A stretch of DNA of 64,000 nt from an uncultured Planctomycetaceae bacterium. GTDB taxonomy: Bacteria > Planctomycetota > Planctomycetia > Pirellulales > PALSA-1355. A model generated the notes under the pieces. That model was given only the letters and a program-made list of their open reading frames with translations, did not search any database and had not been told where the DNA came from. The stretch is from the NCBI GenBank assembly GCA_963779015.1, contig CAVZWY010000022.1, positions 3,890 through 67,889 of the forward strand, read 5' to 3'. Below, piece by piece: positions 8,429-62,741 of the stretch (positions within the stretch are counted from its first letter, which is position 1; each line of letters opens with the position of its first letter). The translations under genes and the position numbers were made by a program.

Positions 8429-8860
8429 ATGAGAATGGTCATCGCGGTCATTCAGCCCACCAAGCTCAGCGAAGTGCGCGAGGCGCTGGCCAAGATCGGG
8501 GTCACGCGCATGACAGTCTGCGACGCCCAGGGCTACGGCCGCCAGCGCGGCCAGACGCAGATCTATCGCGGCAACGAGTACAAAACCAACCTGCTGCGCA
8601 AAATCGCCCTGGAGATCCTGGTCAACGAAGACTTTCTCGATCGCACGGTGGAAACGTTGACCAGCGTGGCCCGCACCGGCGAAGAAGGCATTATCGGCGA
8701 CGGCAAAATCTTCATTCTGCCCGCGGAAAACTCGATCGACATCGGCACCGGCGCAAGGCCCCGGCGCCGTCTAGCATCGGCCAAGAGTAACAGCCTGGGG
8801 ACCCCAGCAACCCGGCCGTCCAATCGGTGCTGGCCGCCGCCGGCGGGTCGCTGCCGGTGA
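8429..8860 (+). CDS. glnB: nitrogen regulatory protein P-II with an aberrant extended C-terminus (probable frameshift near 8750-8756)
   Basis: MRMVIAVIQPTKLSEVREAL...GYGRQRGQTQIYRGNEYKTN (T-loop with a Tyr51 equivalent)...DGKIFILPAE. After IGTG the frame runs on for ~45 non-homologous aa. A 1-nt shift would give TG(E)QGPGAV followed by a stop at 8772-8774, a canonical ~115-aa P-II. Confidence 0.8.
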   Translation: MRMVIAVIQPTKLSEVREALAKIGVTRMTVCDAQGYGRQRGQTQIYRGNEYKTNLLRKIALEILVNEDFLDRTVETLTSVARTGEEGIIGDGKIFILPAENSIDIGTGARPRRRLASAKSNSLGTPATRPSNRCWPPPAGRCR

Positions 8861-9209
8861 AACAGAATCTGCCGCTGCGGTGGACCGACACCGTCACCTT
8901 CCGCCTCGGCTACGAGACCGATCTGAGCGACTTCAACGTGCTCCGCTTCGGCTACGACTATGAGCCCAACCCCTCGCCCAACTCCACGTTCAATCCGTAT
9001 CTCGGCGGCGGGCCGAAACACGTCTTCAGCCTTGGCTTCAGTCACAAGCTGCGCCGCGCCAGCGCGCCATCTTCAACGCGGCCTACCAGTACGCGTTCGG
9101 CCCCACCCGACACGTCGGCGTCAGCACGCTGGTCGGCGGCCAGTTCGACGGCAGCACCTATCAGTCCGACGCGCACTACGCGACGATGAGCCTGTCGATT
9201 CCGTACTAG
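8788..9209 (+). pseudogene. 3' remnant of a FadL/OMPP1-type outer-membrane channel gene, itself frameshifted near 9045-9062
   Basis: Frame 1 reads ...LPLRWTDTVTFRLGYETDLSDFNVLRFGYDYEPNPSP...HVFSLGFSHKL. Frame 0 then continues AIFNAAYQYAFGPTRHVGVSTLVGGQFDGSTYQSDAHYATMSLSIPY to a stop at 9207-9209. About 300 N-terminal residues of such a barrel are absent. Confidence 0.6.
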
Positions 9210-9387
9210 CGGCACGAGGCAAACGGCACGTTTGGGTGGCGCCGACGAGTGACCCGGCGTAGCTTGTCATAGCTGCAACCGGCAAGACCGCGCACCGTTT
9301 GCTCGTTGTGCGGCAACCAGCTACACTTGCCCTGGCAACGCAAATCCCGGCCCAAGCAGCACTCGACAAGCTCGCCGTCGAGAAGTC

Positions 9388-9739
9388 ATGTCCGTCCTGG
9401 TGCTCACCACCGACCTGTTGCTGCAATCGCAGCTTGCCGGCGCCGCACAGCGCGGGCCAGCCGTTCAAAACGGTCAGCTCGGTTGAGGCGCTGTTGGCCA
9501 AAGCGGCGGACGCGCCGCCGGTGCTGGTCATCCTCGATCTGTCGCTCGATACGCTTCACCCGGCAGCGCTCGTGCAACAACTGAAGGAGCAAACGCCGTC
9601 AACACGGGTGGTCGCCTTCGGACCGCACGTGCATCGCCAGCGACTGGCCGACGCCAAAGCGGCGGGCTGCGACGCCGTCATGTCGCGCGGCCAGTTTCAC
9701 GCCGAAGCGGAAGGTCTGCTACGAAGCCTGGCCGGCTAG
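9388..9739 (+). CDS. CheY-like receiver-fold protein (atypical), frameshifted near 9450-9458
   Basis: The ATG at 9388 gives MSVLVLTTDLLLQSQLAGAAQR, a beta1-alpha1 receiver start. It joins the 9299..9739 frame (...GQPFKTVSSVEALL...VLVILDLSL...VVAFGPHV...) only with a 1-nt shift at a GGG run. Confidence 0.5.
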
Positions 9740-9771
9740 CCGCGTGCGCAGCCGCCGCGGCCCGACGCGTG

Positions 9772-11131
9772 CTATCCCGTTGGCGCCGGAGCATCGTCGG
9801 CCGGCTCCACGATGCCGTCATCGCCGGTCTTCAAGGGAGGCAGTCCGTGCAGTTGCTGCTCCTCGGGAAAATACACTTCGTCCAACTCCGTGGCGTCGAC
9901 TTCGCGTCGCAGCAGAAAATAAATCGCGGTCGTGGCAACCCAGAAGTAGCTGAACACGAACGCCAGCGTCAGGGTCGTCACGCAGCCGTTCCAAAACAGG
10001 ATGAACCGCGCGCCGGTACGCCCAAGATTGCCTAGTTCGTCCGCGCTATTCATCACGGCCAACCGATCCGCGCCGCTGCCCCAACTGACGCCCCAATAGC
10101 TCAACTCGATGATCCAAAAGGCAAACTGCGTCACCACGAACCACGCCAACACGCCAACAACGGCGGCCAACACGGCATAAAGAAAGTATCGCAACGGCCG
10201 TTGCATTACATAGGCATACGCATGGCTCAGCGCCAAAAGCGTCGGTACCCTCGGTGCTGATCGCAGCCCACATCAGCGGCCAGCAAAAGTAGAGCCCGAT
10301 CAACAAGAACGCCATGATAAAGCCGCCAACGAGGACCAGCGGCCAGACGATGCCGGCCACCAGCAGCCCGAAGTCTTTCTGCATCATCAGCCCGACCAGC
10401 GCCAACACGGCGGCGCCCATGAACGTCAGCAAGATGGGCATCAGCGGCGCCGCGACATACGAAAACCAGCGCGGCCGCACGAAGCCCCCCACTTTGCGCC
10501 ACGAAACATTCTCTTGCCGTGCCAACGAGACCGCGGCAATCCGCGTAATCGCGCCCCCAAAAAAGGCCCACACCGCCAGACTCCACAGTGCGCAACAAAG
10601 CCAGTACGTCCATTGCGTGAGGGTCGTCTCGGCACGATAAAACTTCTTGAACGGATCACCGATCGCGGTCCATCCGCGCACCAGCGGGCTGCCGTGTTCC
10701 CAAGTCTCCAGCGACAGCAAATCGCCGGGCTGCAAGGCAACGATGCGTCCCTCCCAAGGCCAAGCGCCATTGAGATCCATTTCGTTTTGCAAAGTCAGGT
10801 TGTCCGTGTTGGCAAACAGATCGCCCAGCACGCGCCAGCCGGCCGTGGTTCCCACCAGCGCCAGCGCCGCCAACACCAGCAGCCGAACGTTGAGCGCCAT
10901 CCGCGCCGCCGACAGCAGGCGCAACACCGGAAACAGTTCCTGCCACGCCACCGCCCTGAGAGTGTCACGATCCTGTGCCATTCGACCAGCTCCAGACCCC
11001 GCAAAAATGCCCAGACTACCCGCCCGCACGGCAAGTATACGATTTATCCAGTCCGCCAAGAATAGCGAATGGGGCGGAACGCTACGAGGGCCAAGAGAGT
11101 CCAGGCGGCTGTAATCGATCGCCGCGATCAC
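9772..11131 (-). CDS. polytopic membrane protein of unknown function, split by a frameshift near 10225-10240
   Basis: ORF 10046..11131 ends ...AAISTEGTDAFGA, and ORF 9772..10236 continues LSHAYAYVMQRPLRYFLYAV... with further TM helices. The GTG start overlaps the yacG stop (GTGA). Confidence 0.6.
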
Positions 11132-11360: not shown

Positions 11361-11735
11361 TTATTTGTCGGCCCCTTTGTTCTTCTTCGACGGCTTGCTG
11401 CCGCCGGAGCTTTCGCTCTTGCCGGCGCTGTCTGACTTGGCGCTGTCCGACTTGGCGCTGGCGCCCTCGCTCTTGCTGGACGAATCCGAACTCTTCGACG
11501 CGCTGTCGCCGTTTTTGGAACTATCGGCGCTGGCGCCCTTCTTGTACGACTCGCTGCGATAGTCGGTCTGATAGAAGCCCGATCCTTTGAACATAATCGC
11601 GGCGCCGGTGCCAAACAACCGGCGCAGCTTCAGCTTTTTGCACTGGGGGCACTTTTTTTGAATGGGATCGTTGATCCCTTGAAACAGCTCAAACTTATGA
11701 CCGCAGGCGTCACATTCATAGTCATACGTAGGCAT
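11361..11735 (-). CDS. FmdB-family zinc-ribbon protein with a Ser/Lys-rich tail
   Basis: MPTYDYECDACGHKFELFQGINDPIQKKCPQCKK matches the CxxC..CxxC FmdB signature. The start is taken at the internal Met of ORF 11361..11774. Confidence 0.8.
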   Translation of the reverse strand: MPTYDYECDACGHKFELFQGINDPIQKKCPQCKKLKLRRLFGTGAAIMFKGSGFYQTDYRSESYKKGASADSSKNGDSASKSSDSSSKSEGASAKSDSAKSDSAGKSESSGGSKPSKKNKGADK

Positions 11736-11784
11736 AGACGACGTGTCCTGGAGTGGCCGAAAATACTTTTGCACGTGCGCCGAG

Positions 11785-12363: not shown

Positions 12364-12372
12364 GGCGCCACG

Positions 12373-13635: not shown

Positions 13636-13660
13636 GGCGTTGCCTGGCTCGCGCGGCATC

Positions 13661-18965: not shown

Positions 18966-19009
18966 TGTAGCGGATCCGCCGCCGACACGTCAAGAAAATA
19001 GTTCTGACC

Positions 19010-21865: not shown

Positions 21866-22333
21866 GGGCGACGCTCCTCGCGCAACGCCGTGCTCGAAGA
21901 GTTGCGCGTCGAGGTCGCGGCCGAGGCGCTCGTGTCGCAGACCTGCATCGCCGCGCGAAGGGCAGTCAGCACCAGTTCGTGCGTCGCCCGCGGCGGCAGC
22001 ATGATGATCACGCCGCCGGGAAGCGTGATCCGGATTCCCTCGGACCCGGGCCAGCTAGTCGTCGGCACCTGGACGAACCGTTGGCCGCCGAGTTGGGCTG
22101 TCCGACGAACGACTGGGCCGCCGGTTCGCACTCGCCGGCTGCCGGCTCAATCGTTTGCGCCAGTTGAAGAACGATGGCTGCGAAACCCGCTCTTGCCGGC
22201 AGAACTCGGCGATCGATAGTCCGCTGCGCCGCCAGTTGGCGAGCCGCTCCCGCCACTGCGCAGCCAAAACGCTGCTTGCCAATCGGGCCATGGCTCGTGC
22301 TCCCGCGCCTGAGAAAAAAACGATTTCACTCAA
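21859..22333 (-). pseudogene. tnpA: IS66 TnpA (Orf1), frameshifted near 22060-22130
   Basis: The N-terminal half (ORF 22055..22333) has WRERLANWRRSGLSIAEFCRQERVSQPSFFNWRKRL. The C-terminal half (ORF 21859..22131) has FVQVP...IRITLPGGVIIMLPPRATHELVLTALRAAM and lies in another frame. Confidence 0.7.
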
Positions 22334-25320: not shown

Positions 25321-27107
25321 GAACTCCAGCGCCCGAAACGCAGACAGTCCCATCCGCATGGGGACAAACGTGGCCAGCGCTCCAACGAGACAGCGCCCAG
25401 AGTGCCCAGGACCAGCCAGACTTGCACCCAGAGCGGCTGAATGTCGGTTTGCATCGTGGCCACGTAGAAATGCGAGGGCAGCGCCGTGAGCAAGACGACC
25501 ACGATGATGTAGAAGGCGCTGACCACCAGGCTCAAGGTGCCTCCGAAGCCGGCGGCGATTTTCGAGGGAGACTCCTCGCGCAGGTCGGGCATCTTGGCGC
25601 CCAGCCCCACGGCAATGCCGGCCAGGCCCACGCACAGCAGCACGCACGTCAATTGGTGAATCGCCAGCACGATGGTCGAGATCCCCAGCATCAGGTCGCT
25701 CAGCAGGATCAATCCGCAGCACGGAAGCGTGGCGCCCGCCGCGGCGAACAAGAATTTGCTCCACAGAATGGCTTCGCGCCGCACCGGCAACATGCACAAG
25801 ATCCAGAATCGGCGTCCTTCCAGGCTCAACATCGGAAAGATGAAGCGCGTCGTAAACGTCGACAGGATCAATCCCACCACCGCCAGGTTCAAAAAGCTGA
25901 TCATGTTGACCCAGGCGGCGTAGTTAACGTCGTAGCTGAAGCGGCGGATGTTTGCGAAATAGAGCGTCAGCAGTCCGAAGAAAATCAGAAACTGCGACCA
26001 CTGCACCGGATCGCGGCGAAACAGCCGCAGGTCTTTGACGATCAACAGCCGCATCGGCGCCGTTAGCAGCGGCATGCTCATGGCCAGCCGATCGAGCCAG
26101 AATTTCGCTCGGGGCTGACGTCGCGCGCGGTCGGTGCGCAGTTCGCTATAGCTAATGCGATAAATGCGAGCTCCCACGGCCACCGCCAGCACGCGAAAGA
26201 ACAAGGCATTGGAAATCAGCAGCGACAAAAACAGCAAACTCTCGGCCCACGAAGCGCGGCCGGCCGGCGTTGTTTCGTTGTGGGCCGCTTCGAGCAATCC
26301 GGCGCTGAGCCACCAGCTTGGCAGCAGCCGATGCTCGCTGAATTGCAGCCGCGCGAGCATCTCTTGAAACCACAGCGGCGTCAGCAGGTCCCCCTCGGTG
26401 CGTTCCAACAGCGACCAGCCGATGAGCAACAGAACCGTCGCGGCGGCCAGCGACGCCAACAGCAGAAAATGCCGCTGCATTCGCGCAATCTGATGCACGA
26501 AAAGCATGCACACGATGGCGCCGGCCCCGCCCGGAATGTACACGAACGCTCCCATGAACGCCGGCAACAGTGCGAAGTAATACCAGGGAGCGTTCGCCTG
26601 CAAGCCGTACGCGACGAGCATGGGGCTGCCCAACAGCAGAAAGCCCCAACTGGAAAACACGATCGCTTCCTGAAACTTGTGCAGGACGATGCGTTCGGGC
26701 CGAATGGGCGTGGTCAGTAGAAACTCGGCCTCATCCGAGCAATACAGCCCGCCGTACAGAATGATGCCCGAGGAGAGCACCAGCATCATCATCAGCGAAG
26801 CGAAGAACACGTTGTAGATTGCCTGGACGGTTTGGGCGTACGTGTCCTCGTGGCCGATGGCCAGATTCAAAAACTCAAATCCGCCGACGAACAATCGAAA
26901 CAATCCATACCAGAACAGAGCGCTCAAAACAACGACCAGCGTCACGCGGAGCCTGGCGGTGAAAAGCGCCTGGCGCAGTGACGCAGCCACGGTCCGCCAC
27001 CGCACCCACCACAACAACCGCGCCTCGGCGTTGTGGCTGAGCTCGCCGGTCTCGTCGCGCGTCGCGTGCTCCAGCGGAGCCGGCAGGGCATGGGCCAGCT
27101 CGCTCAT
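25318..27107 (-). CDS. ABC-2-type exporter permease (large, ~12 TM), C-terminal frameshift near 25385-25395
   Basis: The 628-aa ORF is polytopic. The native tail ...VGALATFVPMRMGLSAFRALEF lies in another frame and ends at TAA 25318-25320, which coincides with the last bases of the IS right end. Confidence 0.75.
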
Positions 27108-27956: not shown

Positions 27957-28912
27957 TCACGGCGCAACTCGCGGGGGCGGTTCGAGCATGACCGTTCGCA
28001 AGTCGTCCGACAATTCACCGGACAAACCGGGACCCAGGGCATCGACAAGATCGTCGGCCATGACTCTCGGCATGCGAACAAACACCAAGCGCGACCGCAG
28101 CACCGCCGCTTCCTGGCGCACCACGAGCCCATCGTCGCGAACCCACATGCGGCCGCGTACGTTGTCGCCCGCTGGGCCCGCGCCGGATCACTGCGAAATA
28201 CGACCAACTTGCCAGTGTCTTGCTGGCCGTTCCAATTGATTTTTTCCACCTGCTCGACATGCGCGTGCAGAATTTCCATCGGACTGGTGGGCGGACGAAA
28301 CGGATTGTACAGCGGCACGGTCCATCGCTGTCCGACGCGCAGCGCCGGCATCATGGCCTGGGGCGACAACTCGTCGCTCATCAAGGCGTTTGGCGGCAAA
28401 TAACATTCAAATGTCTTGGGGATGTCGCCCGAGCGAACCGTGATCGACAGCGTCGAGCCCTCGACCTGGCCACTGATCTTGATGGCGTCGCGAATCTCGG
28501 CAATTCGCACGCGGGACTCGAATCTGACAAGCCGCCCCAACGGGTCGATGACCATTTGGCTTTGCTTGTCGACGTCGAGCCGACCCAGGTCGCCTAGCGC
28601 CGGCTTGAGCACTTTGTTCAGCCAACCGGGGGCCAATTCATCCAAGGGCAGCTTGGCCAGATAGACGCGGCTGTGCAACTCCGCGATATTGTCCTTGCGC
28701 CGCACCAGTCTGCTGGCGGCCCAGCCGATCGGCCGGCTGTCGATGTAAATGCTCCAGCATGCGACGGGCTGTCGTCGGCTCTCTTCGAGAATCGCCTGAT
28801 AGCTTGGCGGCTCTCCTACCCGCAGCGGCGGCAACACCTTGGCCACGACCAGCCACGTCATGGTGGCCAACCAGAACAGCACCACGATTACGTTAAATGG
28901 GTGATTCCCCAT
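27957..28912 (-). CDS. membrane-anchored hypothetical protein upstream of the ABC exporter, frameshifted near 28180-28195
   Basis: There is an N-terminal TM helix (VIVVLFWLATMTWLVVAKV). The coherent continuation ...SGAGPAGDNVRGRMWVRDDGLVVRQEAAVLRSRLVFVRMP... is found in a second frame that ends at 27957. Confidence 0.5.
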
Positions 28913-39476: not shown

Positions 39477-42066
39477 CTAGCGCTTGCCGTCCGTCTGGTC
39501 GCGCAATTGGTTTTGCCAGGCCTGCAAGCGCTCGAGCGCCGCCAGCGGCGTGGTTTCGTCGAGGTTCAACTCCCGCAATTGGCCTACGACGAGATGCTCT
39601 TCCGCGGCAAACAGCGTCAGTTGCAAGTCGGAGGTCTTGATCCGCCGCGCGCGTCGCGCCAGTTTGCTCTGCCCCTGGGCGTCGAGCTGTTCGTTTTCTA
39701 GCTGCGCCAGGATCTGCTTGGCCCGTTCGACCACTTGCGGCGGCACGCCCGCCAAGCGGGCCACGTGAATGCCATAGCTCTTGTCGGCTGCTCCGGGCAG
39801 GATCTTGTGCAAGAACACCACCTGGTCCTGCCATTCCCGCACGGCGACGTTGAAATTGCGCACGCCGGGGAGCGAGCTGGCCAACGTGGTCAACTCATGA
39901 TAGTGCGTGGCAAACAGCGTGCGGCAGCCGACCGCATCGTGCAGATACTCGACCACGGCCCAGGCCAGCGACAGCCCGTCATAGGTGCTGGTGCCGCGTC
40001 CGATTTCGTCGAGAATCACCAGGCTCCGCGGCGTGGCATTGTTGAGAATGCGCGCGCTCTCGATCATTTCGACCATGAAGGTGCTTTGCCCCCGCGCCAA
40101 CTCGTCGCTGGCGCCCACGCGCGCGAATATCCTGTCGGCGATGCCGATCGTTGCGCTGCGCCGGCACGAAGCTTCCCATCTGAGCCATCAGCGTCATCAG
40201 CGCCACCTGGCGAATGAACGTGCTCTTGCCCGCCATGTTGGGGCCGGTAATCAGCAGCGAAAAGCCATCCACCGGGCCGCACACCGTATCATTCGGCACG
40301 AACGAGCCCTCGGCGATCCGCGTATCGAGCACCGGATGCCGGCCATCGGTAATCTGCAGGACGGGCTCCTCCACCAGCGTCGGCCGGCAATAATCGCGAT
40401 GGCGGGCCAAATCCGCCAGCGACACCAGCACATCCAACTGCGCCAGCACCATCGCCGTGCGCTGGATTCGCGGCGCGCTGGCAGCCACCGTCTCGCGCAA
40501 TTCGCAGAAGAGTTTGTATTCCAGATCCTGCGCCTTTTCATCCGCCGACAGCACGCGTTCTTCGTACTCCTTCAACTCGGGAGTAATGTAGCGCTCGGCG
40601 TTCTTCACCGTCTGCTTGCGAATGTAGTGCTCGGGAATCTTGGCAGCGTGCGTATGCGTGATCTCCAGGTAATAGCCGAAGACCTTGTTGAAACCCACCT
40701 TCAGATTCGAGATTCCGCTGCGCTGCGACTCTTCGGCCTGATAGGCGGCGATCCATTGCTTGCCGCCGCTGGTCAATTCCCGCAGCCCGTCGAGCTCGGT
40801 GGAAAACCCATCGCGAATAAAGCCCCCTTCGCGGCTGTTCAAGGGACAATCATCCGCCAACGCTCGTTCGAGCACCGCGCGCACTTCGCAGCACGGATCG
40901 AGCTCGGCCTCCAACTGCCGCAGTAGCGCGGCTTGTCGGGCCGTGATCTTGGCTTTGATCGTCGGCAAGCCGCGCAGCGTCCGGCCAATGAAGCTCAAGT
41001 CGCGCGGGCTGGCGCGGCCGGTTGTCACGCGGGTCAGCAGCCGCTCCAGGTCGTACACGCCGCGGAGCTGGTCTTGCAATGCGTTGGCCAGACCGGCATC
41101 GGTCACCAATTCCGCCACGGCGCCCAGCCGCTCGTCAATCGGCTCGATCTTCGTCAGCGGATTGCTCAGCCAATCGGCCAACAGCCGCGAGCCCATCGCG
41201 GTGACCGTGCGATCGATCACGTCCAGCAACGATCCTTCGCGGCGGCCGTCGCGATACGTGCAGGTGACTTCCAGACTGCGGCGCGTGGCCGCGTCGATTT
41301 CCAACGTGTCACCCGGCGCATAGCGTACCAGCCGGTCGATGTGCACCAGCGACGCCTTTTGCGTTTCGCTCAGATAGCTCAACACCGCGCCGGCCGCGCG
41401 GATGGCCGGCCCGTCGTCGTCGTGAAAGCCAAAACCCTCCAGGCTGGCCACGGCAAAGTGCTTGTGCAACGCCTCACGAGCCGTATCCGCGGCAAAATCC
41501 CAACTCGGGCGGCGCGTGACCATCGTCTCCATCGCCGCCACGACGGCCGGCAGTTCGACGTCTTCGCCGACCAGGCATTCGGCCGGTCCGATGCGTGCCA
41601 ATTCATCGCCCAGACGCACCGCCGGCAAGCGCACCGCCAGAAAGCGTCCGGTCGATACGTCGATCCAGGCAAGTCCGGCGGCGTCACTCTCCACGATCAG
41701 CGCGGCCAGGTAATTGCTGGCGCGTGGATCCAACAGCGCGTCGTCGGTCACGGTGCCTGCGGTCACGACGCGCGTGACTTCGCGTCGCACGAGCCCCTTG
41801 GCCTGCTTGGCGTCTTCCATCTGGTCGCAGATGGCCACGCGCATGCCGGCCGCGATCAGCTTGGCCAGATAGCTTTCCAACTGGTGATGCGGAAAGCCGG
41901 CCATGGGCACGGGGTTTTCGCCCTTGTCGCGACTGGTCAGCGCCAAGCCCAGCAACCGCGCGGCCGTCTTGGCATCGTCGTGAAACAGCTCATAGAAGTC
42001 TCCCATGCGAAACAGCAACAGCGCATCAGGGCACGCCGCTTTGGCGTCCTGATACTGCTTCATCAT
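39477..42066 (-). CDS. mutS: DNA mismatch repair protein MutS, reading frame broken near 40140-40155
   Basis: The protein begins [28 protein letters not shown] and has Walker [10 protein letters not shown]. ...MGSFVPAQR in ORF 39979..42117 must shift 1 nt to continue [29 protein letters not shown]...[12 protein letters not shown] in ORF 39477..40118. Confidence 0.92.
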
Positions 42067-42185: not shown

Positions 42186-42730
42186 TCAGAACGTGCCGGT
42201 GGCCAGGCGTTCGGCCAGCGCCGAGGCCACCGCGGCGATGGTCTGCCGATCGGTCGGTTCCATCGCGGCCACGGCGCGGATGACCATTGCCTGCTGCTGG
42301 GGCTCGAGACTGGCGATCAGCTCGGCGCCGTATGCCGCCGGCACGTGCGAGGCCACCAGCGCGATCGTCTGCGGACGCTCATCCGCCAACGCTTCGGCCA
42401 GGGCGTCGGTGCGACATCGTGTACGAACGAAAACGGCCGGATCGCCAGCGGCTGGTCGGCATGCGTCGCCGGCGTTTGCTTGCGCAGGGAAGTCACTGCC
42501 GCCGTGGGCGCGTCGTGAACTCGGCGCGCGTCGGAGCGGGCCGCTTCGGCCTCGGCAAATTCCAGAATGACCGCTTCCTGCTCCACGGCTTCGAGCGTTT
42601 CCACCCGGGCCATTTCGGCCGTTACCGCTTCGACCTCTGGCGGAGTGAGCCGCGCCAACAAGCGATCGGCCTGCTCTTCCGACAGCGTCATCAACAGCAC
42701 CGCCGCTTTGCGCAGCTCAGCTTTTGACAT
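42186..42730 (-). CDS. FliG-like protein with N-terminal and middle (ARM) domains only, frameshifted near 42400-42416
   Basis: LRKAAVLLMTLSEEQADRLLARLTPPEVEAVTAEMARV is followed by PFSFVHDV..DALAEALADERPQTIALVASHVPAAYGAELIASLEPQQQAMVIRAVAAM. No C-terminal torque-generating domain is present. Confidence 0.55.
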
Positions 42731-48622: not shown

Positions 48623-49575
48623 ATGACCAAACGCGCTGGTGTCGTTCTGGCGTGGGGCGTCACGCTGTTGTGGTCGTGCGTGGGCGTGGCCCGGGCCGCC
48701 GAGTGCGAGCCGTTGCAGTTCGGGCCGAGCGAGTTTTCAATCAGTGCCTGGTCTGAAAACGAATGGCGCTTGCTGCCGCACGACGATTGCCTTCGGCCGC
48801 GGAAGCTGTTCGCCTGGCCCGGGACGGAGCGGGCGTACGTCAACGGCCACGAGAATACGCCGCTGCAATCCGACCGGCCGACGTTCACGCAAGCCAATAC
48901 GGTGGTCGGCCTGCGCCGCGTGCAGGTCGAGTCGGGCTATACGTACATTCGCATCAGCGACAACGGCCCGCTGCGCACGGCCAACTCCGTGCCCGAGACG
49001 TTGCTGCGCGTGGGCGTGCTGGCCGAGTGGTGCGAGTTCCGCGTCGGCTGGAGTTCCGGCACGAATTCGCCGCGCGCAATTCGGCCGCCAGCATCTTCAG
49101 CGGCGCCGACCAACTCTACCTGGGAACTAAGTTCGCATTGACGTCTCAGGACGGCTGGCGACCGCAAATGGTCATCCTGCCTCAGATGAACATCTCGACG
49201 AACAAGGCAAACTGGAATGCCGGCGGCGTCGAGCCGGGCGTGAATTGGCTGTATGGCTGGCAGATCAACGAGTGGCTCTTCCTCGATGGCAGCACGCAAG
49301 TCAATCGGGCACGCGACGAAACGCGCTCGTGGTATGGACAATTCGCGCAGTCGCTCGTGTTCAACTATCAGGTGACCGGGCGGCTCAAATGTTTCACCGA
49401 GTGGTTCGCATTTTTTCCGGCCGGATCGGCCACCGCGCTGCCGCAACACTACGCCAATGGCGGCTTCACCTATCACGTCACGCCCAACTTCCAACTCGAC
49501 ATGCACGTCGGAGCCGGCCTCAACGGGCCCGCCGACAACATGTTCATCGGCAGCGGCATGGTTGCCCGGTTCTGA
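48623..49575 (+). CDS. outer-membrane beta-barrel of the MetA-pathway/transporter-like family, frameshifted near 49062-49075
   Basis: It has the signal peptide MTKRAGVVLAWGVTLLWSCVGVARA and the motif SDRPTFTQANTVVGLRRVQVESGYTY. ...RVGWSSGTN joins FAARNSAASIFSGADQLYLGTKFAL...GSGMVARF across a 1-nt shift. Confidence 0.65.
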
Positions 49576-49926: not shown

Positions 49927-52140
49927 ATGAAAGCTGCGACCAGAAACCGGCTCGTCATCGGCGCCTCCCTGGCGGTGGCCCTGCTGGCATTCAATGCTGG
50001 CGTCGACTATCGCAAGACCCGCGAACTACACGAAAGCTCGCAGTGGGTCATCCATTCCCATGAAGTGCACGATGCCTTGGTATCGCTGCTCTCGACGCTC
50101 AAGGACGCCGAAACGGGCCAACGCGGGTATGTAATCACAGGCGAAGCGGAATACCTCGCGCCCTACCACGATGCTTTGGCCCGCCATCGAACCGCCATCG
50201 AGCGAGTCGCCGAATTGACGGCGGACGATCCAGAACAGCAGGCCGACTTGCAGCGGCTACGGGGTCTCATTTCGGCCAAGCTCGATGAAATAGAAGAAGT
50301 GGTTTCAATTCGCAAGGCGCAAAGCTTCGACGCGGCGCGAGCGATGGTGGAGACCGACTACGGCAAGCGATCGATGGATGGCATTCGTTCGCTGGTGGAT
50401 ACGATGCAGGGCCGGGAAAAAAGTCTCTTGCAGGCGCGGCAAAGAGCCGACAACGCGGCCTATCGCTCCTCCGTGGCGGCCATCGCGGTGTCCGCAATAG
50501 CCGGCCTGGCAGTTGTTGCCGCGTTTTTATTGCTCTTGCGAGCCTATATCAAATCGGTCGTTCACTCGGCGGACCGGCTGTATGAGCAGCGTGAGTTGCT
50601 GCGAGCCACTCTTCTGAGTATCGGGGACGGCGTTATCGCCACGGACGTGGTGGGAAACGTGACGTTCCTGAACGACGTTGCTCAGCGTCTGACCGGTTGG
50701 CCTGAAACGGAGGCCAAGGGGACGGCGTGAGAAACCGTTTTCAAGATTGTCAATGAGGAAAACGGCAAGCCGGTCGTCAACCCGGCCGTTCGCGCTTTGG
50801 CCGAAGGTAAGGTCGTTGGACTTGCGAATCATACGATCTTGATCGGAAAGGACGGCATCGAGTGGCCTATCGACGACAGCGCTGCGCCGATCACGAGCGC
50901 GGATGGCAAAGTGAGGGGAGCCATTCTCGTTTTCCGAGAGATCAGCAGACGGAAAAAACAAGAGCAGGAATTGCGGCAGCACGCAGCCGCGCTGGCGGAA
51001 GCCGATCGCCGCAAGGACGAATTCCTGGCCGTGCTTGCGCACGAGTTGCGCAATCCCTTGGCCCCGATCAGCAGCGCTTTGCAACTCTGGCCATTCGTCG
51101 AAAACGACCGGAGCGAAATGGAGAATCTGCGCGTCATGATGGATCGTCAGTTGCAGATGATGATTCGACTGATCGACGATCTGCTGGACGTGTCGCGCAT
51201 TAGCCGAGGAACCATCCAGGTACACAAACAGCCCGTCGACCTTGCGATGGTGGTATCGGGAGCCGTCGACACGGTGAAGCCGCTGATGGATTCGTCAGGG
51301 CACCGGCTTATGCTCATACTTCCCGAGCAGCCGCTGTACGTCGACGGCGATGTTGCCAGGCTCAATCAAATACTTGGAAACATCTTGAACAATGCGGCGA
51401 AATTCACGGGACGCGCCGGAGCGATATGGATAACGGTCGAACGGGCCGACGGTCGCGCCGTCGTCAAGATCCGGGACGATGGCCCCGGCATTCCAAAGCA
51501 AATGCTCGGCGAGATTTTCGAGCTGTTCCGCCAGGTCGACGGATCGCTAAATCGACCTCACAGCGGACTCGGAATCGGCCTGACCCTCGTCAAACGATTG
51601 GTCGAGATGCACGGCGGAACGGTCGAAGCGCACAGCGAAGGGCCGGGCAAAGGAAGCGAATTCGTCGTGGCGCTTCCCCAGAGCAAATCGACCGACGAAA
51701 CGCTCTTGAGTGCAGCACGCTACCGGCCTCATCTTGTATCGGGAGTCCCGTTGCATCGGATCGTGGTTGTCGATGATATCGTTGCGTCCGCGAAAATGGT
51801 CGCGATGATGTTGACCGCGATCGGACAGCAAGTCGTGACTTTCAACGACGGAGCATCGGCCATCGAATGGATTCTTGCCCACGACGCGGACGTCGTGCTG
51901 CTCGACATCGCCATGCCGGGGATGAACGGCTATGAAGTCGCGCAGCGCCTGCGGCAAGAACGGCCAAAATTGGTATTGGTCGCGCTGACGGGCTACGGTC
52001 AAGAGGATGATCGGCGGCGGGCGTTCGAAGCCGGCTTCAACCACCATCTTGTCAAGCCGGTGACCATCGAGGTTTTGGAACAGATTCTCTTGACGGTCCC
52101 AAGCCGTCGTGAGGGAGCCGATTCGGCAATCGTTAAATAA
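49927..52140 (+). CDS. hybrid sensor histidine kinase (CHASE3-TM-PAS-HisKA-HATPase-receiver) with an in-frame TGA at 50728-50730
   Basis: ORFs 49927..50730 and 50797..52140 are in the same frame. The CHASE3 region, the PAS domain (split by the stop), the H-box LAHELRNPL, the HATPase G-boxes and the receiver domain are all present. Confidence 0.85.
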
Positions 52141-52981: not shown

Positions 52982-54453
52982 CTACGGTTCCAAGCCCAGG
53001 CTCTTGCGATACGCCTGGCGCTGGGCGTCGCGGCCAAGCTCGTCGGTGATCTGGTTCCACGCGGCCGCCGCGTCGGCCAGCGCGACGATGGGCGAGGCTT
53101 CGCCGCCCAGCACCTGGGCCACCGCGGAATCGAGGGCCGCCAGGTAGCGGTCGTGGCCCGGGATGCGCAGCGCCAGCAGATACGTGGGCCGATTCACCGC
53201 GTCGCGCGCCGACTCGCCATACTCTCGCGCGGCTTCCGCGTCGGTGCCGGCGTCGACCCACGGCTGTGTCAGCCGCAGTTGCGAGCGGCGATAGAGCGTG
53301 GTGGCCGCACTGGCGCTACTGACGCTGCCGATGTCGCCGCCCCAGTTCTTGCCCGACAGCCAGGCCAGGAACTGAAACGCCGCTTGCGAGTTGGCGCTGC
53401 CCTCGCAGAGCGAAGCCAGTCGGCCCGACAGCCCCAGCAGCGTGACGTGTACGCCTTCCTGCTCGTTGCGGCTCTCCCACGAGTTGTCGGCATAGTTGTA
53501 AACGTCGTCCGAGCCGGGCAGCTCGCAAAAGCTCGTGGCGACTGGCGTGGGCGACGGTTTGCTCGCGCACTGATGCGCCGGCCAGGCGATGGCCATGGCG
53601 CATTGGCCCTGCAGAAACGCGTCGCGCGCCGCATCGAGGTCGACGGGTGCGCGGATCGGCGGGGCCGAACTTCGCATCCGCCACCAACTCTTCCAGAGCG
53701 CGGCACGTAGCCCACGCCGTCGATGAGCGGTTGCATCGTATCCATATTGAACAGCGTCGAGTAATGATCGCGATGTTTGACGTGCGCGGCGGCGCGGGCC
53801 AGCAGCATTCGCCCTGCCCAGCCCGCGGCCAAGGGTTCGATGCAGCCATGCCATGCCGCCTCGGCTCCCGGCGCAGCTTCGACAAGGTTCTCGCGCTTGG
53901 CAAAGAATTCGGCCAGTTCGTGATACTCCTTCCACGTGCGCGGCGGGCGGCGGTGGAACTTCTCGAACAGATCGGCGCGATAGTAGCAAGTCAGCACGGG
54001 CGACCCCAACGGCACGGCCAACGTTGCTTGCCCCCAGCGAGTGGCGGCAATCTGCAACAACTCGAACGTATCGCTCCAGGCCAACTCACGATTGCTCGGG
54101 TAGTCCGCCGGCAGCGGCATCAGCCAGTTCCGCTCGGCAAAGGTGCCCAGCAGGGCCGACGGATAGATCACCGCGTCGCTGCCCAGCGGCAGCGATTCGG
54201 CGGAGACCAGTTCGGCGCTGGTTGTCTCGGTGATCGAAAGCGTGGCGCCGCTGCGGGCTTTCCATTCGCCGCTGACTTGACGAATCGCCTCGGCCAGCGC
54301 GGGATCATCGGCCACGACCAGTTGGATTTGCACATCGCGAGCCGGCGCCGCCTCGGGCGCGGCTGTGGAATCCGACCGCGGCCTGCAGCCACCGGATGCC
54401 GTAACCAGCAGCAACACGAGCCCAACGATTCGATGGAGCGTCCGACGTTGCAT
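52982..54453 (-). CDS. extracellular solute-binding protein (ABC sugar-type), two frameshifts near 53640-53710
   Basis: It has the lipoprotein-like leader MQRRTLHRIVGLVLLLVTASGGC. The coding sense passes through all three minus frames: ...MQPLIDGVGYV, then RALEELVADAKFGP, then ...APVDLDAARDAFLQGQCAMAIAWPA.... Confidence 0.7.
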
Positions 54454-54659: not shown

Positions 54660-56191
54660 ATGAGCGTATTTCTCGGCATCGACATCGGCACTTCCGGCAC
54701 CAAGACGCTGGCCATCGATCCTCGTGGCAAGATCCTGGCCGAAGCGACCAGCCCTTACCCCTCCTACCATCCCAAGCCGCTGTGGAGCGAACAAGACCCG
54801 GACGACTGGTGGCAAGCCACGGTGAAGACCGTGCGCTCGGTGGTCAAGCAGGCGAAAATCAAACCGGCGGACGTGAAATCGATCGGACTGTCGGGCCAGA
54901 TGCACGGTTCGGTGTTTCTCGACAAGAAGGACCGCGTAATCCGTCGCGCGCTGTTGTGGAACGACCAGCGCACCGCGGCGGAGTGCGACGAGATCGAACG
55001 CCGTGCCGGCGGCCGCGCGGCACTGATCCGCATGGTGGCCAACCCCGCGCTCACCGGCTTCACGGCGCCCAAGATCCTTTGGCTGCGCAATCACGAGCCC
55101 CGCAACTTCGACAAGACGGCCAAGGTGCTATTGCCCAAGGACGACGTGCGCCGCCGCATGACGGGCGAATATGCCACCGACGTCAGCGACGCCAGCGGTA
55201 TGCTGCTGTTGGACGTGGCGAAGCGCAACTGGTCGACGGAGTTGCTCGGCAAGCTCGAGTTCGCTCGCTCGCTCTTCGGTCAGTGCTACGAATCGGAGGA
55301 GATCACCGGCAAGCTCACGAAAGAGGCCGCCAAGCAACTCGGCCTGACCACCGATTGCATGGTCGTCGGCGGGGCAGGGGATTGCGCCGCCGGCGCCGTG
55401 GGCAATGGCATCGTCAGCCGCGGCACGCTCTCCACCTCGATCGGCACCGGCGCGGTGATGTTCGTCCACAGCGACACCGTGGAAGTCGATCCGCTGGGGC
55501 GACTGCACACGTTTTGCCACGCGGTACACGGCAAGTGGCACATGATGGGAGTGAGTCTCACCGGCGGCGGCTGCCTGCAATGGTTTCGCAACAAGTTGTG
55601 CCAGGCCGAGATCGCCGCGGCCAAGAGAACCAAGATCGATCCCTACACGATCATCACCGAGGAAGCGGCCAAGATTCCTTCGGGCTGCGAGGGCCTCATT
55701 TTTCTTCCCTACCTTGCCGGCGAACGCACGCCGCACGCCGATCCGGACGCCCGCGGTTGTTTTATCGGCCTGACGCTGGCGCACTGCGCGGCCACATGGT
55801 GCGTGCCGTGATGGAAGGCGTGGGCTACGAGATGCGCGACAGCCTGGAGATCATTCAGGAACTGGGCGTGCCGGTGCGGCAAATTCGGGCCTCGGGCGGT
55901 GGATCCAAGAGTCCCCTGTGGCGGCAGATCCAGGCTGATGTGTTTGGCCAGAAGGTGGTGACGATCAACGCCGAAGAGGGGCCGGCATACGGCGTGGCCC
56001 TGTTGGCGGCCGTGGGAGCCGGCGTGTTCAAGAACGTCGAGGAAGCGTGCCAGGCCACGATCCGCGTAGTAAAGGAAACAAAGCCCAATGCCGCCGCTCG
56101 CAAGGTGCACGACAAGGCGTTTCCGATCTATCAAGGGCTCTATCGCTCGCTGAAAGACGACTTCAAGCGCATCGCCGCCCTCGAAAACTGA
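54660..56191 (+). CDS. xylB: xylulokinase, frameshifted near 55780-55795
   Basis: The protein has [20 protein letters not shown] and [11 protein letters not shown]. ...[10 protein letters not shown] joins ..[21 protein letters not shown]...[20 protein letters not shown] across a 1-nt shift. Confidence 0.9.
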
Positions 56192-57454: not shown

Positions 57455-58839
57455 ATGCCGGACAACTCCTTCGAAGCGCCCGAGAACCGCGCCGCCAAGT
57501 CGCCGTCGAAGAGCACGAAAAAGCCGCCCAAGCCGCTGCGCCACTCGCGCATGCAGTTCGAGCCGCTCGAGCCGCGGAATATGATGGCCGGCGACGCGGC
57601 GACCGCCACCAGCGAGGTGTTGCAAGCCTCGCAGATGAGCGCGTTCTTCGAGCAGTCGGCGCTCTATATGGATCGCCAGCCGGCAACGTTTCCCACGGTC
57701 TCGTGGCTCGCCCATTTGGAGCGACCGCAGATCGAGCCGCGCCGCGCCGACTCGGTCGAACTCATCGAGAAAACGAACGATCTCATTGAGTCCGAGCTGG
57801 GCCACGGCAAGGTCCGCATTGGCGGCATGCTGCCACCCGGCGTTGGCGCCCGTGCCTCGGGCGGACTGCGCCGCTTGATCCGCGTCGACATCGGCTGGCC
57901 CGATCACGTATACGCTCCGTATGTCGACATCACCGCGACGCCGATGTTCGACTTCGTCGAGTCCGCGGTCAGCGAAGGCATTTTGTACTACAACCTGGCC
58001 AATATTTCGGCTGACCCGCAAAATCGACCCAGTTGGGGCGGCGATCCCAACCGCGCCGTCGACGGCGGCGCCTTCGACGCGCAGTTGCGCGAGCAGATTC
58101 ACGAGTTGCGCCTCTGGGCGGCGATGTGGCGGTCTCCTTTGGCGGTCCGCACGGCAAGTCGCTGGCCGAAGCCATTGAAAACGTCGACGAGCTGAAGCAG
58201 GCTTATCGCAACGTCATCGATGCCTATGGCCTGTGCCGCATCGACTTCGATCTCTCCGCCGAAGCGCTCGACAACCACCAGGCGATCGAGCGCAACTGGC
58301 AAGCCGTTGCCGAGCTGCAGCGAGAAATGTCCGAACTCGGGGCTCCGCTGGAGGTGTGGGTTACACTGCCCGCAACGCGCAAGGGATTGGGCGAAGCAGC
58401 GCTCGACGCGGTTCGCTCGGCCGGACAGAACGGCGTCAACCTCGATGGCGTCAACCTCAAGACCGATTACCACGATGCGACCGAGCCGCAGGCGGACCGA
58501 CGGACGGGCCGCGAGACGATCGAAACCACGGTCAATGCCTACTACCAGTTGCGCCGCACGCTGCTGCCCGATGCTAACACCGGCGAAGTGTGGGTAAAAG
58601 TCGGCATCACGCCGGTTGCCGGTTCCGACGGCGCCACGTTTGGTCCCACAGACGCCCGCGAAGTGTACGGCTTTGCCGAGAAACAGCACTTGGGTATGGT
58701 GAGTCTGTGGACGCTCAACCGCGACGCCCGGCCACAGGGACAAGGCGCCCAGAAGGCTCCTGCCGCACAGCCCGCGGCGTCCGAAGGCTTCGACATTTCG
58801 CAGATCTTCAGCGAGTTTGGCAAACTGATGCCGCGGTAG
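57455..58839 (+). CDS. secreted GH18 (chitinase-like) fold protein, frameshifted near 58108-58118
   Basis: It has an LEPLEPRNMMAG leader and YAPYVDIT. ...ELRLW joins GGDVAVSFGGPHG...RIDFDLS...TPVAGSDG... across a 1-nt shift at a G run. The DxDxE position reads DFDLS. Confidence 0.6.
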
Positions 58840-60006: not shown

Positions 60007-60122
60007 GGCAACCTTTCTTCGAAAACAACACCCCGTATACCGCGACGTGACGGTCGAACGGCCAAACCAAGCGTCAAAATGTTTGCTCGTCGGGCGAGAT
60101 TGCCGCCGCGCGAAGCTGGGAG

Positions 60123-61006
60123 CTAGCTGGGCCCTTTTTCAGTGGAGTAGGCCCGGTCGCGCTCTTCGTAGTTTTTGTATTCTATCAGATCATAGAGTTC
60201 CTGCCGCGTTTGCATCTGCTCCAGCAAGGCGGCCTGGCTACCGTCCGCCGCGATGACCGTCAGCGCCTTTTCGATGGCTTTCATCGCCACGCGCAACAGC
60301 GTCACCGGATAGATTGCCGCAGCGTAGCCCATCTGACTCAGCTCCGCGAGCGATAGCAATGGGCTCTTGCCGAACTCGGTCATGTTGGCAACGAGTGGCG
60401 CGCTGACGGCTTTGGCAAACTTGGCAAACTCGTCGGCCGTGGCCAGCGCTTCAGGAAATATCCAATCCGCGCCGGCATCGAGATAGCGCTTGCGCGCTGC
60501 ACGGCGTCGTCAAAATTGGTCACGCCCCGCGCATCGGTGCGGGCAAGAAGCACGAGGCTATCGTCCGCCCGCGCCGCAGCGGCGGCGCGGAGTTTTGCGC
60601 ACATCTCTTCGGCTTCGATCAAGGACTTGCCCGACAGATGCCCGCAGCGTTTGGAAAACGGCTGGTCCTCGAGTTGGATGGCCGCGGCGCCGGCCCGTTC
60701 GAGTTCTTCGATAGTTCGCTCGACCTGCATCGTGCCGCCGAAGCCCGTGTCGGCGTCCACCATCACGGGTATCTTCACGCTGCGCGCCAGCCGCGCGGTT
60801 TGTTGCGCCAGTTCGGTGAGCGTGAACAGCCCGATGTCGGGCACGGCCAGCGCGCCGGCCGAAAACGCGCCTCCGGATAAATATGCCGCCTGGAAACCGG
60901 CTCGTTCGATCAGCCGCCCCGCCAGCGCGTTGTGGGCCCCCGGCACTTGAATGGTCGATTTCGCCGCGGAGTCTCGCAGCAGCTTGCCGGGCGATGGTCG
61001 AGTCAT
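60123..61006 (-). CDS. prpB: methylisocitrate lyase (ICL/PEP-mutase superfamily), frameshifted near 60484-60494
   Basis: The protein has VPGAHNALAGRLIERAGFQAAYLSGGA, VDADTGFG, IQLEDQPFSKRCGHL and LLARTDA. ...DDAVQRA(K)RYLDAGADWIFPEAL...NMTEFGKSP continues only after a 1-nt shift at an AA/AAA run. Confidence 0.88.
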
Positions 61007-61135
61007 GGGCATACCAGGTGGGACGAAATGGGCGACCTGCAAACGCCGAATATACGCCGTCGGGGAAGCCATACGCAAGCCGCCACGCCGTGCGCCCTGG
61101 CCATTGTCCCGCCTGCGGATTACGCTGAGACCGGT

Positions 61136-62741
61136 ATGCATAGCTCGTTTGCTGCCAATCGGCGGGACCCCGGTCACGCTGCGTCTCGCCGGCGCGCGTT
61201 GCTGGAGATTGCGCTGATTTTTCTCGTGCTGTTCATCGAGGGAGCTTGGCCAGCGCCCGAAGCCAACGAGCCGCACTATCTGAGCAAAGCCCGACACTAC
61301 TGGGACGCCAGTTGGTGTGCCGGCGACTTTTTCTGCAACTCGGCCGATGCCCACCAGGTGTTCTATTGGACGTTCGGCTGGTTGACGCAATGGCTTTCCT
61401 TTGTGCGCTCGCCTGGTGCGGAAGGCTGACAACCTGGTGGTTGCTGGCTTGGGCCTGGCGACGTCTGAGCTGGGCGCTGCTGCCGGCCCACTACTACGCC
61501 GTGCTTTCGGCGGCGCTGTTGGTGACGTTGGTCGGCCGCTTCTCCATGGCCGGCGAGTGGCTTGTCGGCGGCGTCGAAGCCAAGGGCTTTGCCTACGTGC
61601 TGGTACTGCTCGGTCTCGAAGGATTGGTGCGCGCTCGCTGGGGATCCGCGCTGCTGTTGTTTGGCGCTGCCTCGGCATGCCACGTGGTGATCGGTGGTTG
61701 GTCGGTCGTGGCGGCGGGCATGGTCTGGCTGGCCAGTGCCGATCGGCCGCCCCTTGCGCGGCTCATTCTGCCGCTGGTTGGCGGATTGATACTGGCCCTG
61801 CCAGGTCTGGTGCCAGCGCTGATGCTCACGCGCGGCGTCGATCCGCAAATCGTGACCGCGGCGAACCGGATCTATGTCTATGAACGGCTGTATCACCATC
61901 TGGTGCCACAACAGTTCGGCGTCTGGTTCAGCGTCGGCAACTGGGATGTGCTAGTCGTGGCGCGGCATTTGATGCTGGTGGGCGTGCTGGTCGGTTGGGT
62001 CTGGTGGGCCCGGCCGCTGAGTGCGCGGTATCGCCGTTTGTGTCTGTTCGTCGCGGCCACAGTCGGTATCTCGGCCGCCGGCATGTTGATCGCCATGGTG
62101 GTGCCGGTTGCGCCGGATCTGGCTGCCGCGTTTTTGCGTTTCTACTGGTTTCGCATGTCCGATGTCATGGTCCCCGTTGGAGTGGCGCTGTTGACGATCG
62201 AGATCCTCGCGCGCTTCCAGCGATCGCGCCCGCGCTGCATGTTGCCGGTTTGGCACTGGCGATGCTGTTCGTAGCCGCCAATTTGGGCGCGACCATCGTA
62301 TGGCGACAGCGCCACCCCGGTCCGCCGGCCGATGCGTACACGAAGAATCTCGATGACTGGCGCCAGATGTGCGACTGGGCGCGCACCAACACTCCTCCTG
62401 ACGCGGTTTTCCTCACGCCACGGCTGGCCCAAACATTTCGCTGGTATGCCCAGCGGGCCGAGGTCGTCAATCGCAAGGACATTCCCCAGGATGCGCCCGG
62501 CATCGTCGAATGGTGGCGTCGCAATGTAGAGATTCATCGGGCAGACGAAGTCACGTCCGACGCGCGTTGGCGAGCATCGCTGGCCGAGCTTGGCGCCGAT
62601 CGCCTCAAGATCCTCGGACGGCAATACGGCGCCGACTATGTCATCACCAGAGCCGACCCGCCGCTGCCCTTGCCGCGAGTCGGTCCGCCCAGCGCCACCT
62701 ACGCGATCTATCGACTGACCGACGAACGATCCCAGCGCTAG
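61136..62741 (+). CDS. large polytopic membrane protein of unknown function, two frameshifts (near 61400 and 62215-62232)
   Basis: The N-terminus reads ...EANEPHYLSKARHYWDASWCAGDFF.SADAHQVFYWTFGWL and is followed by ~10 TM helices and a soluble C-terminal domain. The coding sense passes through three plus-strand frames. Confidence 0.55.

Follow-up and report, generated by a model that had tools for sequence, protein, structure and literature searches.

Frame breaks along the contig

The window, a stretch of 64,000 nucleotides from a metagenome contig (104.7 kb) of the order Pirellulales, contains about 55 genes. A chaperone cluster (grpE, dnaJ, two groEL, groES), aroA and a citrate synthase gene, probably prpC, are intact, while about 19 genes, roughly a third, are broken. 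IS elements and gene remnants are also found in the region. Some genuine decay is present: IS66 tnpC is truncated and FadL survives as a fragment, and only these two look old.

A first-pass annotation had listed 21 frame breaks. Same-strand frame switches were called with a codon-usage Viterbi model that had been trained on long ORFs of the window itself. The switches fell 0-45 nt from nearly all listed sites, providing independent detection. Breaks were regarded as confirmed where intact orthologues in related Pirellulales contigs, or protein homologues, aligned across the junction. By homology, 18 of the 21 were confirmed (8753, 9454, 10231, 25392, 28184, 32882, 35040, 37197, 40156, 42413, 49068, 53650, 53700, 55785, 58114, 60491, 61405 and 62233), relatives being intact at the same sites. 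Two others (FadL fragment, 9055; IS66 tnpA, 22090) had weaker support. Thus, the claim that some twenty genes are truly broken was borne out. The last break, placed at 44727 in a small anchor protein, had to be dropped: no support for any shift was obtained at this site, and an in-frame TTG start at 44673 accounts for the ORF without one. The statement that every gene call is affected also went too far; the intervals 1-8.7 kb and 10.3-22 kb are free of breaks. Conversely, an in-frame stop in a histidine kinase gene (50728-50730) was absent from the list. The sites are as follows (bases lost are in brackets).

8747..8762, + strand: P-II (glnB-like) tail; 2-nt GC deletion, GGCGC[GC]AA
8964..9186, + strand: FadL/TodX C-terminal fragment; frame change of the -1 class near 9055
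9446..9460, + strand: receiver-like protein; 2-nt CG deletion, CAGCGCG[CG]GGC; re-insertion gives QRAG
10224..10237, - strand: membrane protein, ~420 aa; 2-nt GC deletion, GGCGC[GC]TG; re-insertion gives FGALSH
22040..22160, - strand: IS66 tnpA (orf1); frame change of the +1/-2 class, located to the interval only
25386..25398, - strand: ABC-2 permease tail; 1-nt deletion, GCC to GC
28175..28189, - strand: conserved protein, ~317 aa; 1-nt deletion, GGG to GG
32875..32888, - strand: secreted TPR-like protein; 2-nt CG deletion, GCGGCGCG[CG]AT; re-insertion gives AARDLDQ
35031..35047, + strand: molybdopterin oxidoreductase (760 aa in relatives; first annotated as YdeP-like); 1-nt insertion
37194..37208, + strand: BNR_2 sialidase-like protein; 1-nt deletion, e.g. 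CCCC to CCC
40149..40164, - strand: mutS, ATPase domain; 2-nt GC deletion, GGCGC[GC]AGC; re-insertion gives VPARSATIG
42405..42418, - strand: FliG_N/FliG_M-like protein; 1-nt deletion
49043..49057, + strand: outer-membrane protein, Phenol_MetA_deg family; 1-nt deletion
50728..50730, + strand: CHASE3-PAS-HisKA-HATPase-REC hybrid kinase; in-frame TGA within the PAS domain
53638..53651, - strand: solute-binding protein, second shift; 1-nt insertion, CC to CCC
53693..53706, - strand: solute-binding protein, first shift; 1-nt insertion, C to CC
55779..55793, + strand: xylulokinase (FGGY family; xylB); 1-nt deletion in the codon after LAH
58109..58123, + strand: ~555-aa protein (first annotated as GH18-like); 1-nt deletion, possibly GGGG to GGG
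60482..60496, - strand: prpB-like PEP-mutase/methylisocitrate lyase; 1-nt deletion, possibly AAA to AA
61403..61416, + strand: large membrane protein, first shift; 1-nt deletion, e.g. CCG to CG
62229..62280, + strand: large membrane protein, second shift; -1 class, located to the interval only

Nature and distribution of the lesions

Nineteen lesions could be classified: 16 deletions (11 of 1 nt and 5 of 2 nt) and three 1-nt insertions, an excess of deletions with a binomial p between 0.001 and 0.008. Hence the shifts are indeed single-nucleotide, as first described, in most cases, the exceptions being the five 2-nt deletions. All five represent the loss of one GC unit from a GCGCGC-type run. 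In the P-II gene, the loss causes the normal stop (8772-8774) to be bypassed and the ORF to extend to 8857; four relatives end with (R/Q)GP(E/G)(A/S)(V/I)*, placing four residues opposite 10 nt of the window, and the P-II profile is matched at positions 1-100 of 102. In the receiver-like protein, relatives L087 and L086 have (Q/P)RAG at the junction, where the two frames of the window share a 2-nt overlap. The ~420-aa membrane protein splits at 10229/10233 in alignments with about 25 related loci (frames -2 and -3), and FGALSH is found in L087, L088 and L089. AARDLDQ is likewise present in the L084 orthologue (394 aa) of the secreted protein, which aligns as two HSPs with an indel of -2. The mutS gene is split over two frames, with an indel of -2 in 11 of 12 comparisons, and its gene call in the window is a truncation of 700 aa instead of 868 aa.

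The 1-nt deletions lie in runs of 2-4 bases wherever the base can be placed. Direct DNA alignment of the ABC-2 permease gene to L085 (95% amino acid identity) shows one C to be missing; the ORF is 628 aa long versus an expected ~597 aa, homologues having 596-600 aa. The ~317-aa protein breaks at 28184 against its orthologues in L083 and L084, and all 4 comparisons give an indel of -1. The BNR_2 protein changes frame past ALIP, within a segment that reads ALIPRGEALHG in L001 and L082. Against its L001 orthologue (185 aa), the FliG-like protein switches between frames -1 and -3 at 42413, 8 nt being present for 3 codons. Gene calls for the outer-membrane protein consist of a 172-aa and a 135-aa fragment, and many homologues span the junction in one continuous alignment. 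For xylulokinase, 100 of 102 comparisons with related loci gave an indel of -1, and the gene is intact in 80 of 80 such loci. The ~555-aa protein splits at 58111/58117 against its L003 orthologue (indel -1). In the prpB-like gene the indel is -1 in all 13 comparisons, and the PEP_mutase profile match in the first frame ends at position 165 of 240. The first shift of the large membrane protein, whose open frame in L003 is 585 aa, gave -1 in 6 of 6 comparisons. Its second shift is seen as a frame change against the L003 and L004 orthologues (indels -1 and -4); the base could not be placed because the loop is poorly conserved.

As to the insertions, an extra C separates V from R in a segment of the solute-binding protein that reads FVRAL(D/E)EL in three relatives; farther along the gene, the six residues from GP/SP to D(I/P)xxxR in three relatives correspond to 19 nt in the window. 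When aligned to the window, the molybdopterin oxidoreductase orthologues of L001, L082 and L084 break at 35029-35039, giving an indel of +1; were the loop longer by one residue, a -2 event would fit as well.

At the two sites with weaker support, the position of the frame change is approximate. The shift in the FadL fragment, which is present in no relative compared, is only bounded by the overlap of two open frames; joining the frames extends the Pfam Toluene_X match from 309-369 to 309-414 of 421. IS66 tnpA has its N-terminal part in one frame and the part beginning FVQVP in the next; when joined, residues 1-120 align in one piece to ORFs on planctomycete plasmids.

The kinase stop is the one in-frame stop in the window, as against about 20 indels. 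Homologues of this kinase are single proteins of ~737 aa, and all seven that align here have Leu at the stop position, encoded by TTG in the nearest relative. TTA accounts for 4 of the 785 Leu codons of the window. Turning TTG into TGA requires a two-base change or a -1/+1 pair, a change that would be typical of a local miscall.

With ~20 lesions in 52.6 kb of coding sequence, the density is about 1 per 2.6 kb, or ~0.04% of coding bases window-wide. Lesion positions are compatible with a uniform spread (KS p = 0.43), and two genes with double lesions (the solute-binding and large membrane proteins) are unremarkable at this density. No lesion was found in any of the window's 126 homopolymers of at least 5 nt, 30 of which have at least 6. 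The emphasis initially placed on homopolymers was only partly right, since one event in four is the loss of a GC dinucleotide. This contraction is strongly enriched, 5 of 20 events falling in a sequence fraction of 1-2.5% (p from 2e-6 to 1e-4). The absence of accumulated decay around the breaks, also noted initially, agrees with the identity of MutS to that of L001, 87% before the break and 91% after it, in the only gene with both sides measured.

Related contigs and published long-read assemblies

The reference-free scan for frame switches gave 3.2 per 10 kb coding in the window, versus 0-2.0 (median ~0.5) in 20 short-read or isolate loci, so that the breaks exceed chance. Within the same order, loci from MFD (Nanopore-only) and one ENA 'contig_' locus gave values from 0 to 7.3 per 10 kb, four of them between 4.4 and 7.3 (L166, 7.3; L007, 6.0; L066, 4.4; L056, 4.4); Nanopore-only status is established for the MFD genomes and not for L166. 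Apart from the window, MFD loci alone had frameshifts backed by at least two independent relatives (six in 21.5 kb in L007, one each in L066 and L033); there were none in the short-read loci with enough coverage to score. The control events are of two types: runs of 2-4 in GC-rich surroundings lose 1 nt, and +1/-2 events adjoin GCGC. In L166 (ENA contig_7982), MFS, RND and OEP genes and the same hybrid kinase are fragmented. Thus, L007 and L166 are damaged as the window is, and L056 and L066 likewise at lower density.

The MFD genomes were assembled from Nanopore reads only, with Flye and one round of Medaka (PMC12313526). In a MinION-only assembly (Kastor study), errors affected <0.05% of bases; 69% were indels, for the most part false deletions at runs of 2-8 (PMC12007338). 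The window resembles these assemblies in density (~0.04-0.05%), in short runs being hit, in the predominance of indels and of deletions over insertions, and in genes being split into adjacent ORFs in different frames (PMC12007338, PMC12313526). It differs from them in that a quarter of its lesions are 2-nt losses from GC runs, a class not found described there, and it departs from the R9-era Nanopore picture in having no lesion in a long homopolymer. No paper was found that lists the shortening of (GC)3 to (GC)2 among known Nanopore errors.

Origin of the breaks and consequences

Together, these results suggest that the breaks are very probably consensus indel errors, left in a metagenome assembly of long, Nanopore-type reads that received no polishing with accurate ones. 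We infer the Nanopore-type origin from the lesion pattern and the control loci. At modest coverage, the basecaller and the consensus step would under-count bases in short runs and shorten GCGCGC-type stretches by one GC unit. The outcome would be about one small deletion, sometimes an insertion, per 2.6 kb, and gene callers would then split or truncate the genes bearing lesions. The breaks would thus belong to the class of assembly artefacts rather than reflect a biological feature.

The first-pass annotation had offered two options: indel-type sequencing or assembly error, which the data support, and inactivation in a mismatch-repair-deficient lineage, against which the evidence speaks. That the lesions are real and recent, dispensable genes having been inactivated after loss of mismatch repair through the mutS frameshift or under relaxed selection, appears improbable. 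The broken ATPase domain of mutS provides a possible biological cause, yet at the observed density a lesion would strike this 2.6-kb gene by chance with a probability of 0.63. The broken genes are all plausibly dispensable, and the chaperones, aroA and citrate synthase are intact together (p ~0.04 under random placement, for a set chosen after the data were seen); against this, about a third of the genes are broken without flanking decay (the two sides measured in MutS) and at uniformly spread positions. The IS elements and gene remnants of the region and the enriched GC contraction would also suit a biological origin, loss of a GC unit from alternating GC runs being also a natural type of slippage. 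However, slippage without mismatch repair concentrates in the longest runs, which are untouched here; substitutions far outnumber indels in natural mutation spectra, whereas the window has a single stop, itself needing two base changes. Moreover, like damage recurs in Nanopore-only contigs from unrelated members of the order and never in short-read ones. Lineages lacking MutS or MutL accumulate indels at simple repeats. The window is like such hypermutators in its broken mutS and its slippage-like contractions of short repeats, including dinucleotides, but unlike them in its intact long homopolymers, in the near-absence of a nonsense signal, in having a third of its genes broken without decay and in sharing the pattern with unrelated long-read contigs. 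An environmental Pirellulales population that recently lost MutS, bears the unusual signature of shedding GC units from (GC)3 while long homopolymers remain stable, and stands at the onset of gene loss is a shade less probable still.

Pseudogenes of reductive evolution were also considered, and rejected for want of decay downstream of the MutS break. Recently host-restricted bacteria carry pseudogenes with stops, larger deletions and IS insertions inside genes. The window is like such early-stage genomes in having many genes with one small lesion each and IS elements nearby; theirs are lesions of mixed ages and types, whereas those of the window are uniform in kind and placement and all apparently recent.

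We think it very improbable that the consensus blends co-existing strains, haplotypes with short indels having been merged into a chimera carried by no single cell. The sequence comes from a metagenome with no conspecific on record, and two lesions lie 50 nt apart in the solute-binding protein gene. Yet natural strain variation in conserved coding sequence very rarely takes the form of frameshifting indels, so that blending is unlikely to yield some 20 frameshifts; short-read metagenome assemblies of related populations lack relative-backed frameshifts, and a blend would in any case be a sub-type of assembly artefact. Programmed recoding, by ribosomal frameshifting or transcriptional slippage, has a practically negligible chance of being the cause: its one attraction is that both gene halves look fully coding, whereas no slippery heptamer or long A/T run is found at the break sites, the shifts are of three kinds (-1, -2 and +1), and the protein is in one frame in every relative examined.

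Since the lesion pattern matches uncorrected long-read error, the gene calls need repair before use. About a third of them are truncated or split, and fragments of broken genes from this contig already sit in public protein collections. Other public Pirellulales 'contig_' records (L007, L166, L056 and L066) share the damage; assembly type should therefore be a filter in comparative and pseudogene studies of this group. One error in four in this 62% GC genome is the loss of a GC unit from a GCGCGC-type run, which offers a concrete target for polishing tools. Behind the broken calls, the actual organism most likely has intact genes, and to read the contig as missing mismatch repair, xylulokinase, methylisocitrate lyase or P-II would be wrong.

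Frame breaks and their classes

The first-pass annotation had described about 20 single-nucleotide frameshifts, listed at 21 sites, in otherwise conserved genes. The window has a GC content of 62%, with about 80% GC at the third position in real genes. A codon model trained on its own long, high-GC3 ORFs was applied through a Viterbi path with seven states (non-coding plus six frames). This homology-free scan placed same-strand frame switches 0-45 nt from almost every listed site and left 1-8.3 kb and 12.4-20.7 kb free of switches.

The closest kin of the window's MutS and other proteins are Pirellulales (Planctomycetota) metagenome-assembled genomes, the top MutS match showing 88-89% identity. 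Exact look-ups of four window proteins (a transposase, the window's own MutS call, a cold-shock protein and GroES) gave no match from the same population. The syntenic loci compared were L001 (GCA_041750795), L003, L082, L084, L083, L085 (whose ABC permease is 95% identical to the window's), L086-L089 and eighty loci around xylB; L003, L082 and L084 are three stretches of a single 379,572-bp SPAdes-style contig. Since DNA alignments to relatives (about 80% identity) contained excess gaps that prevented indel placement, they were dropped and the indels were located and classed by protein-guided codon comparison. The comparison with close relatives that the first-pass annotation had proposed bore out its observation: orthologues are single ORFs in all fetched loci, whereas the window copies align in two frames. 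The breaks are thus real at 18 of the 21 sites and plausible at two more (the FadL fragment and IS66 tnpA); five, however, are 2-nt rather than single-nucleotide deletions. The remaining site, at 44727 in a small anchor protein, was rejected as unsupported: neither frame matched in Pfam, and a TTG start suffices to explain the ORF.

Frame breaks by class and approximate window position
1-nt deletions (11 sites)
near 9055: FadL fragment; class from frame only
25392: GCC to GC, visible directly in DNA against L085
28184: GGG to GG
37197
42413
49068: outer-membrane protein; many homologues span the junction in one stretch, own gene calls being 172-aa and 135-aa fragments
55785: xylB; 100 of 102 comparisons in support
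58114
60491: 13 of 13 comparisons in support
61405
62233
2-nt deletions (5 sites)
8753 (8747-8762): P-II tail
9454 (9446-9460): receiver-like protein; QRAG restored
10231 (10224-10237): membrane protein; FGALSH restored
32882 (32875-32888): AARDLDQ restored
40156 (40149-40164): mutS; VPARSATIG restored
1-nt insertions (3 sites)
35040: a -2 event would fit too
53650: solute-binding protein
53700: solute-binding protein
Moderate support
22090: IS66 tnpA; the frame-joined protein aligns as one piece

In each 2-nt deletion an alternating GC run of 6-7 nt is one GC unit short, as in GGCGC[GC]TG, and putting the unit back yields exactly the relatives' residues at all five sites. There are 16 deletions and 3 insertions (binomial p 0.001-0.008).

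A lesion of another kind, absent from the first-pass list, affects a CHASE3-PAS-HisKA-HATPase-REC hybrid kinase (49927-52140, + strand), which is interrupted within its PAS domain by an in-frame TGA at 50728-50730. Homologues of the kinase are undivided and about 737 aa long, and the window's own gene call is a 433-aa C-terminal piece. Leu occupies this position in all seven aligned homologues and is encoded by TTG in the nearest relative. The sole Leu codon one step from TGA is TTA, which accounts for 4 of the window's 785 Leu codons; the TGA thus requires either that two adjacent bases changed or that a -1/+1 pair occurred.

Genuine features of the region

The FadL fragment, the truncation of the IS66 tnpC and an extra block of about 9 kb are real features of the region.

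Features of the region
8791-9206: FadL/TodX outer-membrane transporter fragment, C-terminal part only (profile positions 309-414 of 421), between P-II and receiver-like genes
11364-17570, - strand: continuous break-free cluster of zinc-ribbon protein, grpE, dnaJ, groEL, groES and a second groEL, the latter ending in a long GGM repeat tail
18303-18908: IS200-like gene
19332-20717: DDE_Tnp_1 transposase
within 18300-25300: IS66 unit with truncated tnpC (profile positions 107-282 of 284 matched, N-terminal part missing)
23520-25253: second DDE_Tnp_1 transposase
about 43.9-52.7 kb: extra block
44889-45194: IS200-like Y1 transposase fragment, in the extra block
45.2-48.6 kb: 3.4-kb stretch without coding signal, 58% GC, in the extra block
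52730-52803, - strand: tRNA-Ala (anticodon CGC), intact

The P-II and receiver-like genes are directly adjacent in relatives, without the fragment, which makes the fragment a true remnant or insertion, about 600 nt long. Where relatives have the genes that come after the ABC permease, the window has the mobile-element-rich interval 18300-25300. The extra block, which also includes an isolated receiver domain along with the outer-membrane protein and the hybrid kinase, is missing in both close relatives (L001 and L003), where the mutS/FliG-like block directly adjoins the block of solute-binding protein and tRNA-Ala. This tRNA, identical to that of the related locus L005, was the only one returned by a structured-RNA probe; the T-run just upstream of it reads TTT in the window and TTTT in L001.

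Breaks in related contigs

In a reciprocal comparison, initial "events" in short-read loci proved only to reflect the window's own breaks, with one supporting source apiece. These were discarded, and backing by at least two independent relatives was therefore required for each frameshift. Apart from the window, frameshifts so backed were confined to MFD contigs, Nanopore-only metagenome contigs of the same order (six in 21.5 kb of L007, one each in L066 and L033); short-read loci covered well enough for scoring had none. The MFD events resemble those of the window: GG to G, AAAA to AAA and CC to C in GC-rich context, and +1/-2 beside GCGC. The MFD genomes were assembled from Nanopore reads only, with Flye --nano-hq and one Medaka round (PMC12313526). 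The nearest homologue of the kinase lies on L166, a 151-kb ENA record (contig_7982) presumed from its "contig_" name to be a long-read contig; in its positions 1-21497 not only this kinase but also the genes for MFS, RND adaptor, OEP and AcrB are fragmented.

Frame switches per 10 kb coding in the reference-free scan
Window: 3.2
L166: 7.3
L007 (1-21515): 6.0
L066: 4.4
L056 (MFD contig): 4.4
20 short-read or isolate loci: 0-2.0, median about 0.5

L007, L166, L056 and L066 are public "contig_" records of related Pirellulales with 4-7 frameshift-like breaks per 10 kb coding, and their fragments are stored as separate proteins in public collections.

Origin of the breaks

The most economical reading, which we consider very probable, is that the breaks are an assembly artefact: the window would stem from a long-read assembly left without polishing, and the breaks would be consensus errors. 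Sequencing or assembly error was the first of two interpretations offered in the first-pass annotation. It is supported by the like damage in long-read contigs and by a placement compatible with a uniform distribution (KS p = 0.43). In a MinION-only assembly of a genome of 59% GC, errors affected less than 0.05% of bases and 69% were indels, mainly bases falsely deleted from runs of 2-8 (PMC12007338); their density and direction agree with those of the breaks.

The second interpretation, recent inactivation in a mismatch-repair-deficient lineage, is disfavoured. Real mutations in a mutS-null or decaying lineage would accord with the frameshift in mutS itself, whose own gene call (on a 104,716-bp contig) is a 700-aa truncation, although at the observed density the chance of a hit in a 2.6-kb gene such as this is 0.63. 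Also in its favour, the chaperone cluster and aroA are unbroken (p about 0.04, post hoc), and the five GC-repeat contractions fit slippage, of which contraction of GC repeats is a natural type. In the window and relatives, 1.1-2.5% of the sequence lies in alternating GC runs of at least 6 nt, which hold 5 of 20 events (p 2e-6 to 1e-4); no specific description of dinucleotide contraction in short GC runs was found in the literature consulted on Nanopore data. A depletion of such runs in the window was considered and dropped: their count (1.7 per kb, against 2.1-3.9 in the closest short-read relatives) is inside natural variation, L088 and L089 being lower still. Against real mutations stand the untouched long homopolymers (no event falls in the window's 126 runs of at least 5 nt, 30 of them at least 6) and uniform placement, the near absence of stop codons, the lack of decay around the breaks (MutS is 87% identical to a relative ahead of its break and 91% past it) and the finding of like damage only in unrelated contigs known (MFD) or presumed (L166) to be long-read. 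We regard this origin as improbable, and a consensus blended from several strains as somewhat less probable still. Programmed recoding of the broken genes is practically excluded, since slippery motifs are absent at the sites and all orthologues are in a single frame.

The breaks are most probably artefactual and of low biological interest; gene calls of this contig and of similar public contigs require frame correction.
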